Virus record (IMG/VR): IMGVR_UViG_2695420538_000013
DNA from: a virus
Taxonomy: Duplodnaviria; Heunggongvirae; Uroviricota; Caudoviricetes
Reading direction: 5' to 3' (one strand)
Length of the DNA: 19,994 nt
Each line of letters starts with the position of its first letter. The stretch's first letter is position 1. Positions 10,368 to 19,994 of the stretch are shown here, one piece after another. The notes below the pieces were generated by a model that saw nothing but the letters and a program-made list of their open reading frames with translations, searched no databases and was not told where the DNA came from. The translations under genes were made by a program, and so were the position numbers.

Positions 10368-10434
10368 TGAAACAGGTGAGTTGAGTTCAAACTGTAGTAC
10401 AATTCTCTCCAGTTTGAACAGGAAAGAATATGCT

Positions 10435-10767
10435 ATGAACCCTTATATTTATCTTGGTGGTGCAATACTTGCAGAGGTCATTGGTACAACCTTAATGAAG
10501 TTTTCAGAAGGTTTTACACGGTTATGGCCATCTGTTGGTACAATTATTTGTTATTGTGCATCATTCTGGTTATTAGCTCAGACGCTGGCTTATATTCCTA
10601 CAGGGATTGCTTATGCTATCTGGTCAGGAGTCGGTATTGTCCTGATTAGCTTACTGTCATGGGGACTTTTCGACCAACGGCTGGACCTGCCAGCTATTAT
10701 AGGCATGATGTTGATTTGTGCCGGTGTGTTGGTTATTAATTTATTGTCACGAAGCACACCACATTAA
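10435..10767 (+). CDS. emrE: Small multidrug resistance (SMR) efflux transporter EmrE
   Basis: 110 aa from MNPYIYLGGAILAEVIGTTLMKFSEGFTRLWPSVG..., four TM helices with the conserved Glu14. The track ORF begins at an upstream TTG. Confidence 0.95.
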   Translation: MNPYIYLGGAILAEVIGTTLMKFSEGFTRLWPSVGTIICYCASFWLLAQTLAYIPTGIAYAIWSGVGIVLISLLSWGLFDQRLDLPAIIGMMLICAGVLVINLLSRSTPH

Positions 10768-10796
10768 AATAATTTGTTTCTAAACGACTAAAATAT

Positions 10797-10830
10797 GGAG
10801 GCTCTTATATTTATATGAGCCTCGTTTTAT
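10797..10830 (+). terminator. Rho-independent terminator downstream of emrE
   Basis: GGAGGCTC (10797-10804), 12-nt loop, GAGCCTC (10817-10823), then GTTTTATGCTTTTT. Confidence 0.6.
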
Positions 10831-11021
10831 GCTTTTTGTTAATGTCTTTATTTTTTATGTATTCTTTTGTGCTTTCAAGATTATGGCGTAAGAAAATTGC
10901 AATACGATTATTGTTGTATATTCAAGATAATGTGACCTTAATTGTCTTTTTAAATAAAAATTAAACAAAAATTATATCCCACCACTAAGGTTTATAAAAG
11001 CATACGTTAGCAGGTGTCACC

Positions 11022-12548
11022 ATGAAAAAAGCCATAGCATATATGCGATTTTCATCACCAGGTCAGATGTCTGGTGACTCATTAAACCGACAGAGAAGAC
11101 TTATTGCTGAATGGTTAAAGGTAAATAGTGATTATTATCTTGATACCATAACATATGAAGATTTAGGATTAAGTGCATTCAAAGGAAAGCATGCACAATC
11201 AGGAGCTTTTTCGGAATTTTTAGATGCTATAGAGCATGGTTATATATTGCCAGGAACTACATTGTTAGTTGAAAGTCTGGACAGACTTTCAAGAGAAAAA
11301 GTCGGTGAAGCGATTGAACGTCTGAAATTGATTTTGAATCACGGTATTGATGTTATAACTCTTTGCGACAATACAGTCTATAATATTGACTCTTTGAATG
11401 AGCCATATTCATTAATAAAAGCCATACTTATAGCACAAAGGGCAAATGAAGAAAGCGAGATAAAGTCAAGTCGGGTTAAATTATCATGGAAGAAAAAACG
11501 GCAGGATGCACTGGAATCAGGTACGATTATGACGGCGTCTTGTCCGAGATGGCTCTCCTTAGATGACAAAAGAACGGCTTTTGTTCCAGACCCCGACAGG
11601 GTGAAAACTATTGAGCTAATTTTTAAACTCAGGATGGAAAGGCGCTCATTGAATGCAATAGCCAAGTATTTAAATGATCATGCTGTAAAGAATTTCTCAG
11701 GAAAAGAAAGTGCATGGGGACCTTCTGTAATTGAAAAATTATTAGCGAATAAAGCTCTGATAGGTATATGCGTACCTTCATATCGTGCAAGAGGGAAAGG
11801 GATAAGTGAAATCGCTGGCTATTATCCCAGAGTCATATCAGATGATTTGTTTTACGCTGTACAGGAAATTCGGTTGGCACCTTTTGGTATTAGCAATAGT
11901 AGCAAGAATCCTATGCTAATAAATCTACTTCGAACAGTTATGAAGTGTGAGGCTTGTGGTAATACCATGATTGTTCATGCGGTATCTGGAAGTTTGCATG
12001 GCTATTATGTTTGTCCGATGAGAAGATTACATCGATGTGACAGGCCATCAATAAAAAGAGATTTGGTTGATTATAATATCATTAATGAATTGCTTTTTAA
12101 TTGTAGCAAAATTCAACCAGTTGAAAACAAGAAAGATGCTAATGAAACTTTAGAGTTAAAAATTATTGAGCTTCAGATGAAAATTAATAATTTAATCGTT
12201 GCATTGTCTGTCGCGCCTGAAGTTACCGCTATAGCAGAGAAAATAAGACTATTAGATAAGGAATTACGAAGGGCTTCGGTATCATTGAAAACTTTGAAGA
12301 GTAAAGGTGTAAATTCATTCAGTGATTTTTATACTATTGACTTAACCAGTAAAAATGGACGAGAGTTATGCCGTACACTTGCCTATAAAACATTCGAAAA
12401 AATCATAATTAATACGGATAATAAAACCTGTGATATTTATTTTATGAATGGCATTGTTTTTAAACACTATCCTTTAATGAAAGTAATATCCGCCCAGCAG
12501 GCGATAAGTGCTCTCAAATATATGGTTGATGGTGAGATTTATTTCTAA
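11022..12548 (+). CDS. ybcK: Large serine recombinase (resolvase/invertase N-terminal catalytic domain, recombinase domain, zinc-ribbon), YbcK-like
   Basis: 508 aa. N-terminal AIAYMRFSSPGQ...SLNRQR (catalytic Ser region), central recombinase domain, Cys cluster CEACGN...YYVCP...HRCD, and C-terminal coiled-coil-like region. Confidence 0.9.
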   Translation: MKKAIAYMRFSSPGQMSGDSLNRQRRLIAEWLKVNSDYYLDTITYEDLGLSAFKGKHAQSGAFSEFLDAIEHGYILPGTTLLVESLDRLSREKVGEAIERLKLILNHGIDVITLCDNTVYNIDSLNEPYSLIKAILIAQRANEESEIKSSRVKLSWKKKRQDALESGTIMTASCPRWLSLDDKRTAFVPDPDRVKTIELIFKLRMERRSLNAIAKYLNDHAVKNFSGKESAWGPSVIEKLLANKALIGICVPSYRARGKGISEIAGYYPRVISDDLFYAVQEIRLAPFGISNSSKNPMLINLLRTVMKCEACGNTMIVHAVSGSLHGYYVCPMRRLHRCDRPSIKRDLVDYNIINELLFNCSKIQPVENKKDANETLELKIIELQMKINNLIVALSVAPEVTAIAEKIRLLDKELRRASVSLKTLKSKGVNSFSDFYTIDLTSKNGRELCRTLAYKTFEKIIINTDNKTCDIYFMNGIVFKHYPLMKVISAQQAISALKYMVDGEIYF

Positions 12549-13012
12549 ATAATGATCTCGGATTTTAAGTTATGCTATGGTGATAAAGTGCAAGACAGAA
12601 TTAATTATCTTTGACGAAACTTAATGGGTAATTACTTTGTTTGCTCCCACAAGCGAGTTTTGTACGGCTGTATTGGGGTAGTAAATGAGCTATACAATCT
12701 TAATCATTTGTCAGGTGAGAACTCTTGGTCGCAGATTCAAATACTGAAAATACGTGACAAATTATTATGAGCAAAATGGTGTATGTCACGTATTTTGAAT
12801 GATAGGTTAAAAAATAACACCGACTTTCGTAGGTATTACTAATAATAAAGCAGAGTTTTTAGATAGTATCAATGTGCTTTGTGTATATTGTGGCAAATAA
12901 TTGGGTTGGGGGTACAATTGTGATTGCTTTTGCATAAAAATTGCGCCTTTATGCATAATGAGATAAAGGAATATCAAATAAAATAACGATAGGTCATAAC
13001 AAAGAGGTTTTT

Positions 13013-13564
13013 ATGAAAACACTTATCGTTTCAACTGTATTGGCATTCATAACATTTTCTGCGCAGGCTGCAGCATTTCAGGTCACTAGTAATGAAATAA
13101 AAACAGGAGAGCAACTTACAACGTCTCATGTCTTTTCTGGATTTGGGTGTGAAGGTGGTAATACATCGCCCTCATTAACCTGGTCTGGTGTTCCTGAAGG
13201 TACCAAAAGCTTTGCCGTAACTGTATATGATCCAGATGCACCTACAGGCAGTGGTTGGTGGCATTGGACTGTTGTTAATATTCCAGCAACAATAACATAT
13301 TTGCCCGTTGATGCAGGGAGACGTGATGGAACAAAACTGCCGACTGGTGCTGTTCAAGGCCGAAATGATTTTGGCTATGCTGGGTTTGGTGGCGCGTGTC
13401 CTCCTAAAGGAGATAAACCACATCATTACCAGTTTAAAGTATGGGCTCTAAAAACTGAAAAGATTCCTGTAGATTCTAACTCCAGCGGAGCGTTAGTTGG
13501 TTATATGCTTAATGCTAATAAAATCGCAACCGCTGAGATAACACCAGTTTATGAGATAAAGTAG
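13013..13564 (+). CDS. ybcL: Secreted PEBP/YbhB-YbcL family (UPF0098) protein
   Basis: 183 aa with signal peptide MKTLIVSTVLAFITFSAQAAA. PEBP motifs DPDAPTGSGWWHW and HHYQFKVWAL. AGAGG Shine-Dalgarno. Confidence 0.85.
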   Translation: MKTLIVSTVLAFITFSAQAAAFQVTSNEIKTGEQLTTSHVFSGFGCEGGNTSPSLTWSGVPEGTKSFAVTVYDPDAPTGSGWWHWTVVNIPATITYLPVDAGRRDGTKLPTGAVQGRNDFGYAGFGGACPPKGDKPHHYQFKVWALKTEKIPVDSNSSGALVGYMLNANKIATAEITPVYEIK

Positions 13565-13573
13565 GGTGAGAGT

Positions 13574-14371
13574 ATGCTGGCAAGAGGTAAGACTAACTTA
13601 AAGATCGAAGAAATACGGATGCATAAACATCATGAGATTCATAGGGTTAAGCCTCTTATGCCAGCTTTGTGTCGTATCCGTCAGGGAAAGAAAGTTATCA
13701 ATTGGGAGACGCATACTTTAACTGTTGATAATAATCAAATAATATTATTTCCTTGTGGTTATGAATTTTATATTGAGAATTATCCTGAAGCAGGGCTTTA
13801 TCTTGCAGAAATGCTTTACTTACCCATTGATTTAATTGAGAGTTTCCAAAAACTTTATACGGTAACTGATCAAATACGTAACAAAACAAGTTTCTTTTTA
13901 CCTCAGAATCCTGAGTTAATATATTGTTGGGAGCAACTAAAAACATCTGTTTCCCGAGGCTTCTCAACTAAAATTCAGGAGCACTTAGCAATGGGCGTTC
14001 TACTTTCGTTAGGAGTGAATCATGTTAATCATTTACTTTTATCATATAGTAAACAATCATTGATAAGTCGTTGTTATAACCTGCTGCTATCCGAACCCGG
14101 CACAAAATGGACAGCAAACAAGGTTGCTCGATATCTCTACATTTCTGTTTCTACATTACATCGCCGTCTAGCAAGCGAGGGGGTAAGTTTCCAAAGTATA
14201 CTGGACGATGTGAGGTTAAATAATGCGTTGTCTGCTATACAAACGACGGTAAAACCTATAAGCGAGATTGCCAGAGAAAATGGTTATAAGTGTCCTTCTC
14301 GTTTTACTGAAAGATTTCATAATCGTTTTAATATAACACCAAGAGAGATAAGAAAAGCTTCCAGAGAGTAA
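13574..14371 (+). CDS. ybcM: AraC/XylS-family transcriptional regulator YbcM-like
   Basis: 265 aa. C-terminal double HTH ([21 protein letters not shown]...[30 protein letters not shown]). Confidence 0.85.
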
Positions 14372-14487
14372 AAGTGTTTTAAGAAGGAGCAATTCTATCG
14401 ATTTTGATTTTGGGAAATCAACACGGCATAATTATGTCACCGGAGCCTGAACAACTCCGGTGACTTCTGCGCTAAACGGGGACGTTT

Positions 14488-15211: not shown

Positions 15212-15494
15212 TTTGAGAAAAGCAGCGCGTGGTCGGGAATGCCAGGTAAGAATCCCTGGCGTATGTAATGGCAATTCTGAAACGTCTGTACTGGCACATA
15301 TCCGGCTGGCTGGATTGTGCGGTACCGGTATCAAACCGCCAGACCTGATTGCCACCATTGCATGTTCTGCCTGCCACGACGAAATCGACCGCCGCACACA
15401 TTTTGTCGATGCTGCATATGCAAAAGAATGCGCGCTGGAAGGTATGGCGAGAACACAGGTTATCTGGCTGAAAGAGGGGGTTATTAAGGCGTGA
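15204..15494 (+). CDS. ybcO: YbcO-family (DUF1364) Cys-rich putative nuclease
   Basis: 96 aa from [34 protein letters not shown]...[11 protein letters not shown]. The track ORF starts earlier at 15165. Confidence 0.8.
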
Positions 15495-15854
15495 ATACCT
15501 ACAGTATCACATTACCCTGGCCTCCGAGCAATAATCGCTATTACCGCCATAATCGCGGGCGCACGCACGTCAGTGCAGAGGGGGCAGGCATACCGCGATA
15601 ACGTCGCCCGAATCATTAAAAACGCAATGCTGGATATCGGCCTGGCTATGCCTGTGAAAATCCGCATTGAGTGCCACATGCCGGATCGCCGTAGCCGTGA
15701 CCTGGATAATCTGCAAAAAGCCGCTTTTGACGCACTCACTAAAGCAGGTTTCTGGCTGGATGATGCTCAGGTCGTTGATTACCGCGTTGTGAAGATGCCT
15801 GTTACCAAAGGTGGGAGGCTGGAACTGACCATCACCGAAATGGGGAATGAATGA
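15491..15854 (+). pseudogene. rusA: Holliday-junction resolvase RusA, disrupted by a +1 frameshift in a G5 run (15580-15584)
   Basis: The GTG-start frame gives (M)[30 protein letters not shown] and then stops. The remaining RusA sequence [36 protein letters not shown]...TITEMGNE continues in the next frame (track ORF 15573..15854). Confidence 0.75.
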
Positions 15855-15991
15855 TGTTTGAGTTTAATATGGCAGAACTTCTTCGCCACCGCTGGGGGCG
15901 TCTGCGCTTATATCGTTTCCCCGGCTCTGTTTTGACCGATTACCGAATACTGAAGAATTACGCCAAAACACTGACAGGAGCAGGAGTATGA
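15851..15991 (+). CDS. ylcG: Small protein YlcG-like (46 aa)
   Basis: Hand-translated [46 protein letters not shown]. Start overlaps the rusA stop. Confidence 0.55.
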
Positions 15992-16076
15992 AGTCAGAGA
16001 TAACAATCAACTAATACTGTTTTGTTGATTTTTGCTTGTAATTGGCGTTCTGGTCTGAGTTTTGTGGAGTAAGTTG

Positions 16077-16454
16077 ATGCGTGATATTCAGATGGTTCTT
16101 GAGCGTTGGGGAGCGTGGGCGGCTAATAATCATGAAGATGTGACCTGGTCGTCCATTGCCGCCGGTTTTAAGGGATTAATTCCTTCAAAAGTAAAATCTC
16201 GCCCGCAATGTTGTGACGATGACGCGATGATCATTTGCGGGTGCATGGCCCGTCTGAAAAAGAACAACAGCGATTTGCATGATTTATTGGTGGACTATTA
16301 TGTCGGCGGCATGACTTTTATGGCGCTTGCACGTAAGCATGGGCGATCTGATTGTTGGGTTGGCAGGATGCTCCAGAAAGCTGAGTGCGTAGTGGAGGGT
16401 ATGCTGATGGTGTTGGATCTCCGATTGGAGATGGATGCTGATTGTTCGAAATAA
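16077..16454 (+). CDS. quuD: Late-gene antiterminator Q (QuuD-like)
   Basis: [22 protein letters not shown]... with Cys-rich zinc-binding region ([16 protein letters not shown]). Positioned just upstream of the late promoter/terminator and lysis genes. The start may instead be the TTG one codon earlier (16074) or the TTG at 16062. Confidence 0.85.
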
Positions 16455-16466
16455 TTAAAGGAAAAG

Positions 16467-16495
16467 TTGCTGTCTGATTCTCATTAGTCTAACAT
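16467..16495 (+). promoter_or_regulatory. Candidate late promoter pR' (Q-utilisation region)
   Basis: TTGCTG (16467-16472), 17-bp spacer, TAACAT (16490-16495), located between Q and the terminator, followed by the near-palindrome AACATTTTAAATGTT. Confidence 0.25.
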
Positions 16496-16552
16496 TTTAA
16501 ATGTTGGAATCGCAACGTAGTTATTATCATATAACAGCTTGTTTCCTGATTT

Positions 16553-16582
16553 AGCCAGCCTCCCCAAAGGCTGGTTTTTTTC
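16553..16582 (+). terminator. Rho-independent terminator (tR'-like) downstream of Q and its promoter region
   Basis: AGCCAGCC, loop TCCCCAAA, GGCTGG, followed by a T7 run (16575-16581). Confidence 0.7.
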
Positions 16583-16609
16583 TAATAAGTATTATTTCGG
16601 GTAGGGATT

Positions 16610-17134
16610 TTATTGTTTAACCCATAATAATTCATTGACATTGAATCCCAACTTTTGAGCGGTTCGCACATAGTCTGCTTTTACTTTATCTGGAATAGTT
16701 GGGGTCCTTGCCAGAATCCATAGGTATTCTCTGTTCGGACCACTGACAAGAGCATACTTATACTCATCATCCAGTTTGATTACATTATAGCCACCATAGA
16801 AGGGGCCAAAAAACGAAACCTTCAACGCTGCAGTTTTAGTATCTCCAGTAAAGTATGCTTTACCTTCGCTCTCGCTCCATTTATTTTTCGTTGGATCGTA
16901 TCCACGGTTAAGTACACGAATCCCTCCGTCGTTCCGTTTTCCATAGGTAGCGCTGACCTGTTCCAGACCACGTTCGAACCGGTTCTCGAGGCGAGCTATT
17001 TCATACCATTTTCCGAGGTAGCGGTTGGCGTCAAAATTTGTAATCGGCTGCACACCTTTAGGTGGTGTCGGGGCCTTACATGCTATAAGAGTGAAAGAGA
17101 GTGCAATGCCAGTCAACACAGGCCATAACTTCAT
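16610..17134 (-). CDS. Bacterial lipocalin (Blc-like) outer-membrane lipoprotein
   Basis: 174 aa with lipoprotein signal and lipobox LIAC (MKLWPVLTGIALSFTLIACKAP). Lipocalin motifs NFDANRYLGKWYEIARLENRFERG and KVSFFGPFYGGYNVIKLD. Diverged from, not identical to, my recollection of chromosomal Blc. Confidence 0.85.
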   Translation of the reverse strand: MKLWPVLTGIALSFTLIACKAPTPPKGVQPITNFDANRYLGKWYEIARLENRFERGLEQVSATYGKRNDGGIRVLNRGYDPTKNKWSESEGKAYFTGDTKTAALKVSFFGPFYGGYNVIKLDDEYKYALVSGPNREYLWILARTPTIPDKVKADYVRTAQKLGFNVNELLWVKQ

Positions 17135-17326
17135 AATAAATCCTGTACTTTTGATAGTTGAGAGTAAGTATGAAAGATAGATGATTACGACCGATCACTT
17201 AAAGAACTTTCATACTATATTAGGAATAGTCTATAACAGAAAAATTGTCAGTGATGACGCCAGAAAGGCAATTTATTCCGTGCACTACACAGTTTATGTG
17301 TTAATGAATTAGTCAAGGGGGAGAAT

Positions 17327-18286
17327 ATGATAAAAAAACCTGTGATTGGAATCAGCGGTTGTTTGGCCGGCTCTGCTGTTCGTTTTGATGGTGGTCACAA
17401 AAGAGCTGACTTTTTAATGGACAAATTAGTGGAATGGGTAACATTCAGACCAGTATGTCCGGAAATGGCTATAGGGCTGCCAGTTCCGCGTCCTGCTCTA
17501 CGTCTTGTGCGCTCGACGCAAGGAAATATACGGATGTGTTTCAGCCACGACCAGAATGAGGATGTGACAGAGAGAATGACAGAGTTTAGTCGTTCTTATA
17601 TGGACAAATTAAAGGATGTATCGGGGTTTGTGGTTTGTGCTAAATCTCCCAGCTGTGGCATGGAGCGCGTGCGTGTCTATGATGAAAATGGTAATCGAGG
17701 TCGTAAAGATGGAGTGGGACTATTTACGAGCACTTTGATGGAAAAGTTTTCCTGGCTACCGGTTGAAGAGGATGGGCGATTACATGATCCAGTGCTTCGT
17801 GAGAATTTTGTTGAAAGAGTTTTTGCTTTGCATGAGCTCAATCACCTTTACAAGGAGAAATTATCAAGAAGAGAGTTATTAGCTTTTCATAGTCGTTATA
17901 AGCTTCAGTTGTTGGCGCATAGTCAGGCAGGCTATAAAGATATGGGACCATTTGTGGCTGCAATACACGAGTGGGCGGACCTTGAATCATACTTTGAGGT
18001 GTATCGTGATAAGCTGATGGCGATTCTCAGAAAACCTGCATCACGTAAAAATCACACGAATGTGCTGATGCATATACAGGGGTATTTTAGTAACTACTTA
18101 AGTACACGCCAGCGTAAAGAGTTGAGCGAGGTTATACTTAACTATCGTTCTGGCACATTACCTCTTCTTGCGCCGTTGACTCTGCTGAAGCATTATCTGG
18201 GTGAGTATCCTAATGATTACTTGCTTACACAGAATTACTTCGATCCCTATCCGGACGAACTGGCTCTAAGACTGATGGTAAATTAA
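17327..18286 (+). CDS. DUF523 (TudS-type Fe-S desulfidase) fused to DUF1722 (YbgA-like) protein; candidate RudS-like thionucleoside/tRNA desulfidase
   Basis: 319 aa with AAGGGGGAG Shine-Dalgarno. N-terminal half has conserved Cys residues (GISGCLAGS, VCPEMAIGLP, VVCAKSPSCGMERV) as in DUF523; C-terminal half resembles YbgA/DUF1722. Domain assignment from memory, not a search. Confidence 0.75.
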   Translation: MIKKPVIGISGCLAGSAVRFDGGHKRADFLMDKLVEWVTFRPVCPEMAIGLPVPRPALRLVRSTQGNIRMCFSHDQNEDVTERMTEFSRSYMDKLKDVSGFVVCAKSPSCGMERVRVYDENGNRGRKDGVGLFTSTLMEKFSWLPVEEDGRLHDPVLRENFVERVFALHELNHLYKEKLSRRELLAFHSRYKLQLLAHSQAGYKDMGPFVAAIHEWADLESYFEVYRDKLMAILRKPASRKNHTNVLMHIQGYFSNYLSTRQRKELSEVILNYRSGTLPLLAPLTLLKHYLGEYPNDYLLTQNYFDPYPDELALRLMVN

Positions 18287-18637
18287 TTGTATGCGATATC
18301 ATCCAAAAGGATGAGTTCCTGCATGCAGGATATTTACAATCGTAAAAACTACACTATGATACCCAGAGTGTCAGTTTGTATAAAAACTCTGTTTACGCTG
18401 AAGAAACCATTGAGATGCAACTTAAAGTTGGTAAACATGCCAGTCAAAATATATAATATTATGATTCCACGCAGCTATATATAATATAACAGATTGGTTT
18501 AATAATTTGTCTTTGTGAGTTAAATACATAATTTTATACTTGTGATGCAATGAGATTTTCCTTATTGTTGAACTGGCGAATATTGATTTTCCACCTATAC
18601 TTACCTGGTGTAACCCCAATGATATCAGGTGGATAAT

Positions 18638-19369
18638 ATGCCATACATATGTTCTATCATTTTGGTGTTGAACTCGTTTGATGTCCGAATTGGTAAAGAA
18701 GATATTTTGTTTAAAAAAGGAAGTGCTGTTCTCATTGATTACAATTTAAAAGATTTTTTTTCATCAAATATAGATCATGTAATGATCGTAGATGTTGAAG
18801 AGAAAACAGTTAATGATTTCTTTAAAAGCAACACACTCTCACCTTTTTCTGTAAGAAGGTTTTATCCGGCATACTTGATGGTGGAATGTGAAGATTTTTC
18901 ATTGTTAAAGAACTTGATTGCATGCTTGAATTGTGATGGCAGAACTGTGGATTTTGTTAGAAATCAAATATCACTTGCATGTCTTGCTATCTTATCTTCA
19001 GAGAAAATAGTGCAAAGTTTTTTATTTGGATGTCTTAATAGTTTAGGAAGTAAAGTTAAGGCTATTATTCACACGGATATATCTGCAGCATGGAGACTTT
19101 GTGATATATCTTCAAGACTGTATCTGAGTGAAAGTCTGTTAAAAAGAAAATTAAAGCACGAAGGCTTATCATTTAGTAAGTTAATTCTTGAAGAGCGAAT
19201 GGTGATGGCGGAAAGGTTATTAAGCTACAATTTATATTCTGTTGGAAAAGTTGCTGAGATATGCGGTTATGAAAACACGTCATATTTTGTGAGTGTTTTC
19301 AGAAGATATTTTGGTGTTCCTCCCCATCAATATTCATCAAGACTTTTTTTAGAAAAAGACATGATGTAA
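18638..19369 (+). CDS. AraC-family transcriptional regulator, AppY/EnvY-like, in AT-rich DNA
   Basis: From MPYICSIILVLNSFDV... (AGGTGG Shine-Dalgarno 5 nt upstream; the track ORF begins at GTG 18629). C-terminal AraC double HTH (WRLCDISSRLYLSESLLKRKLKHEGLSFSKL...VAEICGYENTSYFVSVFRRYFGVPP). N-terminus resembles what I recall of AppY. Confidence 0.8.
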   Translation: MPYICSIILVLNSFDVRIGKEDILFKKGSAVLIDYNLKDFFSSNIDHVMIVDVEEKTVNDFFKSNTLSPFSVRRFYPAYLMVECEDFSLLKNLIACLNCDGRTVDFVRNQISLACLAILSSEKIVQSFLFGCLNSLGSKVKAIIHTDISAAWRLCDISSRLYLSESLLKRKLKHEGLSFSKLILEERMVMAERLLSYNLYSVGKVAEICGYENTSYFVSVFRRYFGVPPHQYSSRLFLEKDMM

Positions 19370-19557
19370 CGTGATGCGTTTTAATGATTTTGTAATTTTC
19401 GTATTTGATAATTGTATGATGCTTTCAGCTACGCCAGAATAATCGCTGGCGTTTTTCTTTTTGAATAGATGTTCAAGCCTTACGCTAATGTAACTTCTAT
19501 ACCTTTCCTCTTCGTTCCGAACCGTGTACACCATCCGTTATTTGCGGAGGTGAGGCT

Positions 19558-19773
19558 ATGAAATCCATGGATAAGTTAACAACGGGCATTGCCTACGGCA
19601 CCTCCGCAGGCAGTGCTGGCTACTGGTTTTTACAGCTGCTCGATAAAGTCACGCCCTCACAGTGGGCAGCAATAGGTGTGCTGGGTAGCTTGGTATTTGG
19701 CTTGCTGACGTACCTGACAAACCTTTATTTCAAGATTAAAGAAGATAAGCGCAAGGCTGCGAGAGGTGAATAA
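19558..19773 (+). CDS. Phage 21-type class II holin (pinholin S21-like)
   Basis: 71 aa [71 protein letters not shown]. Dual-start MKSM motif, two TM segments, GGAGGTG Shine-Dalgarno. Confidence 0.9.
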
Positions 19774-19994
19774 TGCCTCCATCATTACGAAAAGCCGTTG
19801 CTGCTGCTATTGGTGGCGGAGCAATTGCTATAGCATCAGTGTTAATCACTGGCTCAAGTGGTAACGATGGTCTGGAGGGTGTCAGCTACATACCATACAA
19901 AGATATTGTTGGTGTATGGACTGTATGTCACGGGCATACAGGAAAAGACATCATGCTCGGTAAAACGTATACCAAAGCAGAATGCAAAACACAC
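19773..19994 (+). CDS. SAR (signal-anchor-release) endolysin, R21-like lysozyme; 3' end beyond window
   Basis: [57 protein letters not shown]...: Gly/Ala-rich SAR domain then lysozyme N-terminus. Start overlaps the holin stop (TAATG). Confidence 0.9.

Follow-up and report, generated by a model that had tools for sequence, protein, structure and literature searches.

The stretch of DNA analysed here, which we call the window, is 19,994 nucleotides of the prophage filed as IMG/VR virus record IMGVR_UViG_2695420538_000013 (Caudoviricetes), and our subject is a cargo of three intact open reading frames (ORFs) at positions 16610-19369, between the antiterminator gene Q with its terminator tR' and an S21-type holin gene. 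The three encode a Blc-type lipocalin, a protein of the RudS family and a regulator of the AraC/XylS family (hereafter the AraC protein). We interpret the block as composite lysogenic-conversion cargo brought together by two independent acquisitions, one of a divergent lipocalin-rudS pair and the other of the AraC gene, and we put the probability of this reading, with the whole of the mechanism proposed below, at roughly 0.6. The block is an ordinary composite moron, very common and with partly characterised parts, in which the true unit of cargo is the lipocalin-rudS pair, an ancestral divergent pair.

The cargo and its slot

Homology with the DLP12 prophage of Escherichia coli K-12 stops at window position 16436, in the last codons of Q, and restarts at 19543, 15 bp before the holin gene, with identities of 98.6% through the end of Q and of 95% from the point of restart. 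In DLP12 this gap is filled by nmpC and IS5, and the trio, which spans 3.1 kb between Q/tR' and the holin, is therefore cargo in the classical Q-to-holin slot, as had been proposed in an earlier note made from the sequence of this DNA. The nmpC moron of DLP12 and the stx genes of Stx phages likewise lie between Q/tR' and the holin, but the genes themselves differ, and the cargo of the window is a three-gene composite with one antisense and two sense members. Two marks of a moron were found, namely that the slot holds other cargo in related phages and that the base composition of the cargo is distinct from that of its flanking genes: G+C content is 32.0% in the AraC gene and 44% in the lipocalin and rudS genes, compared with 48% in Q and the holin gene. 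The AT-richness described in the earlier note consequently holds for the AraC gene and the intergenic regions (32-35% G+C) and not for the lipocalin and rudS genes, which are at the window average.

A complete lambdoid prophage of the DLP12-like kind in strain 266917_2 matches the window at 99.97% identity and has the same genes in RefSeq, and the same three coding sequences are annotated by RefSeq in hundreds of genomes. Comparison of the two main alleles gave ratios of nonsynonymous to synonymous divergence (dN/dS) of 0.06 for the lipocalin gene (dS 0.20), 0.10 for rudS (dS 0.30) and 0.27 for the AraC gene (dS 0.35), the last being the least constrained of the three. The trio are real genes and not chance ORFs, because they are RefSeq coding sequences in hundreds of genomes and have these low dN/dS values, and their shared dS of 0.20-0.35 means that they have been inherited together for a while. 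ORF calls and Pfam agree with the coordinates and identities that had been given for all three.

Probable chromosomal origin of the lipocalin-rudS pair and loss of its MerR gene and operator

Chromosomal homologues were surveyed in one genome per species among 185,579 species representatives, which yielded 62 rudS loci outside E. coli with products 66-77% identical to that of the window, the genera including Citrobacter, Enterobacter, Leclercia, Kluyvera, Klebsiella, Pectobacterium and Dickeya. No donor with more than 90% identity was present among these representatives, the best being Citrobacter with 74-77%. A lipocalin gene, whose product is 69-82% identical to the window lipocalin, lies upstream of rudS on the opposite strand in 42 of the 62 loci, and most of these lipocalin-bearing loci have the order lipocalin gene (reverse), MlrA-type MerR gene, transthyretin-like gene and rudS, with the Pfam domains MerR_1, MlrA_helical, MlrA_C and Transthyretin. 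Direct divergence of lipocalin and rudS genes, as in the phage, occurs in Citrobacter sedlakii (spacer of ~190 bp) and Citrobacter sp. JGM124 (~230 bp), in other chromosomal contexts; the phage spacer was not alignable to these Citrobacter spacers. The arrangement in C. braakii and C. amalonaticus is different, with rudS as the last gene of an operon that comprises SnoaL-like, SDR, amine oxidase, DUF1365, cyclopropane-synthase-like, DUF2878 and DUF3833 genes, a set that belongs to photo-oxidative stress regulons. In Vibrio cholerae, blue light induces a related cyclopropane fatty acid (CFA) synthase (PMC5241685).

The regulation of one chromosomal relative has been described: in Salmonella pathogenicity island 2, MlrB and MlrA use an MlrA-type operator to repress orf319, a RudS orthologue (bioRxiv 10.1101/2021.03.09.434593). 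We scored MlrA-type dyads as AAAATTGTACA-N12-TGTACAATTTT-like over 22 positions against 300 shuffles. Such a dyad stands 27-81 bp 5' of rudS in all five of the MerR-bearing chromosomal loci scored, with 16-18 of 22 positions and a match by 0-2 of the 300 shuffles. The best MlrA/MlrB-type dyad in the phage spacer 17135-17326 reached 14 of 22 with a 13-nt spacing and was matched by 125 of the 300 shuffles. A suggestive dyad before the phage rudS, AAAATTGTCA...GCAATTTA, was considered as an MlrA/MlrB operator and rejected, being no better than shuffles. There is also no MerR gene in the window. The rudS genes of the Salmonella mlrB-orf319 locus and of the Enterobacter lipocalin/mlrB-like/transthyretin-like/rudS loci are homologous to that of the phage, and the Enterobacter-type loci add a lipocalin homologue on the opposite strand, but the phage differs from both in having no MerR gene, transthyretin-like gene or MlrA-type operator.

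Furthermore, the G+C content of the lipocalin and rudS genes is 57-61% in the chromosomal homologues and has drifted to 44% in the phage (~40% at third codon positions), which argues for long residence in phage DNA. According to the mechanism that we propose, the pair would have been acquired from an Enterobacteriaceae chromosomal stress locus, and the phage copy, having lost the MerR regulator gene and the operator, would be free of that repression.

Two observations on the chromosomal loci should be added. The gene between the MlrB-like gene and rudS, which encodes a secreted protein of the transthyretin/HIUase family, was seen in ~40 loci, mostly of Enterobacter and Leclercia (5485-5898 in the locus that we numbered L013), including 35 of the 39 in which a MerR gene adjoins the lipocalin gene, and it has no obvious tie to tRNA thiolation. 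Citrobacter braakii ATCC 51113 has two rudS copies on different contigs, each with a product 76% identical to the window protein; the first of them stands at the end of a cluster running from DUF1365 via a CFA-synthase-like gene to DUF3833.

Separate origin of the AraC gene

The AraC protein has a C-terminal double helix-turn-helix (Pfam HTH_18 at residues 161-237, 1e-14; HTH_AraC, 2e-11) and is 31% identical to AppY over its full length (3e-42) and 30% identical to EnvY. Its best NCBIfam model is YdeO, with 127 bits against a cut-off of 348, and the GadX model gave 86 against 500. By these sequence comparisons it is placed in the AppY/YdeO/GadX subgroup without being an orthologue of AppY, YdeO or GadX, in line with the AppY-like regulator that had been suggested earlier. 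AppY (from DLP12), YdeO and, presumably, PatE, PsrA and PsrB resemble it as prophage-borne AraC/XylS proteins of ~245 aa. The gene shares its AT-richness with appY, which has the same G+C content (that of the AraC gene is 26.6% at third codon positions). It differs from the genes for AppY/YdeO-type regulators in lying between Q and the holin and not near the tail-fibre or attachment end.

No homologue of the AraC gene was found near rudS at any of the 62 chromosomal loci. Paralogues do occur alone in other places: those of mEp332 and ev099 (52-53% identity) lie between int and the genes for the tail fibre, and that of an Stx2k phage (39%) lies between Q and stx2. The AraC gene would therefore be, in the proposed mechanism, a second and independent pick-up, in 32%-G+C DNA and with promoter-like and terminator-like sites of its own, and the likely targets of its product are host genes of stationary phase or acid stress, regulated in trans in the manner of AppY, PatE and PsrA/B.

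Moreover, the gene is often inactivated. The exact 66-nt context of a run of eight T residues in its coding sequence has T8 in 244 complete genomes, T7 in 239 and T9 in none, so that T7 is as frequent as the intact form in complete genomes with the window-type allele. The T7 frameshift leads to a stop near codon 44. Of 12 indel alleles of the gene in the IMG/VR sample, 9 map to the same tract. In strain WCHEC035148 (T7), the one genome checked directly, the AraC gene is annotated as frameshifted, while the lipocalin gene (with an identical protein) and rudS are intact. Sequencing error was considered as the source of the frameshifts and rejected on account of the exact T7 in 239 genomes with T9 in none. 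It is also countered by T7 in two RefSeq records of WCHEC035148 (NZ_CP029369 and NZ_CP043274), in both of which the 741-nt query matches over 740 nt at identical coordinates, and these records point to a real T7 allele, unless one of them re-uses the assembly of the other. The lipocalin and rudS genes thus appear to stay intact in the T7 genomes, and the AraC gene would be dispensable for their retention.

Distribution and linkage

The distribution was surveyed in 5,426 complete E. coli genomes, with a match taken as full-length at 80% cover or more. Matches to rudS were found in 1,136 genomes (1,064 of them full-length), to the lipocalin gene in 1,135 (1,042) and to the AraC gene in 1,034 (993). 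A query with the whole 3.2 kb block matched 3,816 genomes, mostly in the flanks only (Q or holin), and was full-length in 985. The co-occurrence that the earlier note had asked to be surveyed is thus near-perfect in E. coli. Among 80 prophage loci from IMG/VR, 61 have the complete order Q, lipocalin gene (reverse), rudS, AraC gene and holin gene, and in most of the remaining loci, 19 in number, the order is the same but the AraC gene is in fragments. The block also occurs in isolated phages, namely IdasGreatGrand (99.2% identity) and 1H12 with about ten other infant-gut lambda phages (89.6%); gp65, gp66 and gp67 of 1H12 are the same trio, to which the window lipocalin, RudS and AraC proteins are 97%, 93% and 82% identical.

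The block is always accompanied by the same type of Q and by the lysis genes essD-rrrD-rzpD, and the nin regions differ, being DLP12-like, lambda-like or Qin-like. In our reading, Q, the block and the essD-rrrD-rzpD cassette would move together as one unit between lambdoid phages, which are mosaic.

Two further records of the module are worth mentioning. In BL21 (NZ_CP053601, 1553651-1563797) it lies in a Qin-like prophage with the lipocalin gene intact, rudS cut after 147 nt beside an IS3 element, and the AraC and lysis genes deleted. The short contigs JARKOR010000151 and JARKOR010000135, binned into a metagenome-assembled genome of 'Candidatus Nanosynbacter', carry it at 94-100% protein identity and are almost certainly a binning contaminant.

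Predicted functions of the lipocalin and RudS

The lipocalin matches Pfam Lipocalin_2 (PF08212, 7e-44), the NCBIfam Blc subfamily NF007786 (316 bits against a cut-off of 267) and Blc chains in the PDB (1e-66 to 1e-69; 3mbt, 3.5e-69). As read from the sequence, its signal peptide MKLWPVLTGIALSFTLIA-C19-K has the lipobox L-I-A-C with Cys19, aligned with VVAC-S of Blc, and a lysine at position +2, which is no inner-membrane retention signal. E. coli Blc (b4149) has the lipobox lipoprotein signal and the Lipocalin_2 fold in common with it, at 60% identity in K-12. The window protein is nevertheless a paralogue and not chromosomal blc; it is nearer (77-82%) to the second lipocalin that adjoins rudS in Enterobacter, Leclercia and Citrobacter sedlakii, and its gene stands antisense inside a phage late operon. 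It would be exported as a lipoprotein to the outer membrane, and its probable ligands under envelope stress, judging from the identity with Blc, are lysophospholipids or fatty acids. An identical protein, WP_000780581.1, was quantified by proteomics in strain CCUG 70745 and rose 2-3-fold 15 min after meropenem; it was also detected in uninduced cells, and its placement in the outer membrane in that study was by prediction only (PMC13459554).

The middle protein carries PF04463 (2-thiour_desulf/DUF523, TudS) at residues 7-149 (3e-40) and PF08349 (DUF1722) at residues 192-309 (2e-40). The three [4Fe-4S]-ligating cysteines Cys12, Cys44 and Cys110 are present, together with Glu46 of the CPE motif and Ser107 and Ser109 of the SxSC motif; Cys12, Cys44 and Glu46 align with Cys10, Cys43 and Glu45 of TudS. 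It is 93% identical to RudS_vir, which is gp66 of phage 1H12 (YP_009909557) and has the same TudS/DUF523-DUF1722 fusion, length of 319 aa, cysteines, neighbours and phage slot; the two differ by 21 substitutions, none of them at cluster or catalytic residues, and Table 1 of Jamontas et al. 2024 (PMC11417400) gives the same positions for Cys12/Cys44/Cys110, Glu46 and Ser107/Ser109 of RudS_vir. The domains, residues and identity assign the window protein to the RudS family of tRNA 4-thiouridine desulfidases, which bears out the RudS-like assignment of the earlier note. RudS_vir was cloned from 1H12, and its overexpression lowers tRNA 4-thiouridine in E. coli in vivo (PMC11417400). With its three-cysteine [4Fe-4S] cluster, the window enzyme would convert 4-thiouridine at tRNA position 8 to uridine, and in lysogens it may lower tRNA 4-thiouridine and so reduce near-UV sensitivity.

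These precedents also mean that the view of the block as something other than a described moron does not stand: the paper that isolated 1H12 and its relatives listed blc in 2020 among the morons of lambda phages from the infant gut, where more than 50% of 19 had it (PMC6969025), and the 1H12 orthologue of the desulfidase has been tested as RudS_vir (PMC11417400). The prophage context, the lipocalin partner and the gene frequency are not discussed in the RudS paper (PMC11417400), and our literature search found no paper that treats the lipocalin-rudS pair or the trio as a unit.

Promoters and transcription

Promoter-like sites were scanned in 15900-19994, and their number was compared with that in shuffled sequence. 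Both of the best sigma-70-like matches of the region (10 of 12 each, as consensus matches only) lie 5' of the AraC gene, at 18333-18360 (TTTACA-16-TATGAT) and 18428-18457 (TTGGTA-18-TATAAT). In the spacer between the lipocalin and rudS genes a single 9/12 match was found (17158-17185). Of the divergent promoter region ascribed to the block, the 192-bp divergent spacer exists, and its promoters are putative. The pR'/qut site is expected upstream of the terminator, at ~16420-16550. A pR' at 16467-16495 (TTGCTG-17-TAACAT), picked by eye, was dropped, as it matches at just 7 of 12 positions and is missing from the scan, whose one candidate is a 9/12 site at 16426-16455; no position was assigned to pR'.

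The lipocalin gene is antisense to late transcription and therefore needs its own promoter. The rudS and AraC genes are co-directional with the late operon, so Q-modified RNA polymerase should read both after induction.

Weighing of alternative explanations

The single functional unit of regulator plus effectors suggested in the earlier note would amount to one regulon, with the AraC protein sensing a signal and activating the divergent lipocalin and rudS promoters in replacement of the lost MerR control. This we consider improbable. The AraC gene differs from the pair in composition, is frameshifted in 239 genomes, with the lipocalin and rudS genes intact in the one checked, and is deleted in BL21; regulators of this type stand by themselves in other phage slots; such a gene accompanies rudS at none of the 62 chromosomal loci, 42 of which have the lipocalin gene; and for relatives of the AppY class the targets are host genes, reached in trans (PMC10057817, PMC10877973). 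On the other side are the occurrence of the whole block in 985 genomes against 993 with the full AraC gene, the joint divergence of the three genes, and the loss of the ancestral regulator and operator of the pair, which left room for a new one. A different proposal, which we regard as doubtful, is that rudS mainly serves the lytic cycle: transcribed from pR' by Q-modified polymerase, it would either de-thiolate tRNA, so that UV-induced cells go on translating, or recycle the 4-thio-UMP that tRNA releases. It draws on the position of rudS on the late strand downstream of Q/tR', on the presence of the cassette in infective phages, on the growth rescue on 4-thiouracil, which was the best with RudS_vir among the RudS enzymes tested (PMC11417400), and on the recycling of 4-thio-UMP by TudS enzymes (PMC10611767). 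It has to be reconciled with the antisense orientation of the partner lipocalin gene and with a rudS kept intact under purifying selection in otherwise crippled prophages, such as that of the window with its insertion in int and frameshifted rusA. Loss of 4-thiouridine by thiI deletion, moreover, mildly reduces lambda replication (PMC3296357), and a purely phage-serving role of RudS, although possible, fits poorly with this. We see little likelihood, too, in a more elaborate scheme, that of a phage-borne kit against light stress, in which RudS, freed from MerR and driven by Q after UV/SOS induction, strips 4-thiouridine from tRNA and thereby uncouples near-UV growth delay and stringent alarm from phage production, and the lipocalin handles photo-oxidative or envelope lipid damage in lysogeny; if true, no temperate phage before this one would have been seen to use an epitranscriptomic eraser.

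Phages can be excluded by prophage outer-membrane lipoproteins such as Cor and Llp, and the lipocalin might similarly protect from superinfection by masking a receptor, or lower tRNA thiolation might impair the frameshift-dependent tail assembly of superinfecting lambdoid phages. In spite of the mildly higher lambda resistance of E. coli upon thiI deletion (PMC3296357), this is very unlikely, since none of the three proteins has a PADLOC match, their PHROG families are all labelled 'unknown function', the chromosomal homologues lie in stress clusters and not in defence islands, and the carrier phage would suffer too. It is just as hard to credit that the genes are functionless passengers hitch-hiking with a successful Q-lysis module. 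That they are linked to just one module, in just one species, and that the AraC gene is frequently inactivated would fit, but dN/dS is 0.06 for the lipocalin gene and 0.10 for rudS across a dS of 0.2-0.3, the catalytic residues of RudS are kept, the lipocalin protein has been detected and RudS_vir is active, so that this alternative is already disfavoured.

The composite cargo from two acquisitions remains the reading that we favour, and the following points weigh against it. Simple hitch-hiking on the Q-lysis module could account for linkage this tight in a single species, and the T7 allele may be a single clonal event over-sampled in clinical genomes, which would weaken the case for dispensability of the AraC gene. 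The scan found 13 promoter-like sites compared with 11.6 expected by shuffling, which is not above chance, and our literature search turned up expression evidence for the lipocalin protein but no transcript or protein data on rudS or the AraC gene from a lysogen. As regards the enzyme, of the RudS enzymes tested, RudS_vir was the weakest in tRNA desulfidation and gave the shortest lag with free 4-thiouracil (PMC11417400), and tRNA may therefore not be its sole or main substrate. The blunting of near-UV growth delay was shown for RudS_KT alone and not for the phage enzyme (PMC11417400).

Significance

The analysis adds modestly to what was known: it indicates where the pair came from and that it left MerR control behind, that the block is composite and that the AraC gene has a T7 pseudogene allele, and it corrects a statement on RudS in E. 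coli. RudS homologues are said to be lacking in E. coli by the paper in which the family was defined (PMC11417400), contrary to which about one in five complete E. coli genomes has a phage-borne RudS. Studies of tRNA thiolation or near-UV physiology, and those that label with 4-thiouridine, should reckon with this gene in strains other than K-12. The conserved pairing of lipocalin and rudS genes in enterobacterial chromosomes offers a functional connection, open to experiment, between two proteins of which little is understood, and the T8 and T7 alleles of the AraC gene are natural on/off variants for comparative transcriptomics. Apart from the frequency of RudS, the pair and these alleles, the findings are ordinary moron biology in a well-known slot.

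Other features of the prophage

The coordinates of the cargo genes, their spacers and the anchors on both sides are given in Table 1. The hairpin directly after Q folds with -26.2 kcal/mol (z = -4.2) and is kept in the 1H12 and 2013C-4282 alleles; that between the AraC gene and the holin gene is present in 1H12 and missing from K-12 DLP12.

Table 1. Features of the Q-to-holin region, in window coordinates
Feature	Position	Strand	Size, composition and remarks
Q antiterminator (QuuD type)	16077-16454, alternative start 16062	+	Left anchor; Pfam Phage_antitermQ 3e-50; RefSeq "antiterminator Q family protein"
tR'-like intrinsic terminator	16553-16585	+	9-bp G+C-rich stem, 6-nt loop, T-run (terminator scan)
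Blc-type lipoprotein lipocalin (predicted)	16610-17134	-	174 aa; antisense to late operon
Lipocalin-rudS divergent spacer	17135-17326		192 bp; 33% G+C
rudS (DUF523-DUF1722)	17327-18286	+	319 aa
Leader/putative promoter region of AraC gene	18287-18637		AT-rich, 32.5% G+C
AraC/XylS-family regulator gene	18638-19369	+	243 aa; 246 aa from GTG at 18629
T8 tract within AraC gene	18754-18761	+	Site of frequent T7 frameshift
Terminator-like hairpin and T-run	19431-19460	+	3' of AraC gene, 5' of holin gene (terminator scan)
S21-type class II holin (essD)	19558-19773	+	Right anchor; Pfam Phage_holin_2_1 2e-35 (P21 holin S family)

Searches with Rfam and for tRNAs found no known RNA element or tRNA in the cargo interval; the sole Rfam match of the window is an ALIL frameshift pseudoknot (RF01497, 120 bits, 1734-1850, minus strand) within a 1,310-bp IS3-family insertion sequence at 876-2185. 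This element, which we take to resemble IS629, has 25-nt terminal inverted repeats, TGAACCGCCCCGGGTTTCCTGGAGA, and splits the prophage integrase gene (1-875 and 2183-2522). The prophage of strain 266917_2 is without the integrase insertion; that of the window is probably locked in place. The rusA gene (15491-15854) is frameshifted, with an ORF of 93 aa compared with 120 aa in K-12, and is annotated by RefSeq as a pseudogene in the prophage of strain 266917_2. Finally, a second cargo island of low G+C content (31-40%) lies at ~10400-14400, between ren and ybcN, with emrE, ylcJ, the recombinase gene ybcK, ybcL and ybcM (AraC-type regulator), and is also present in DLP12 of K-12.

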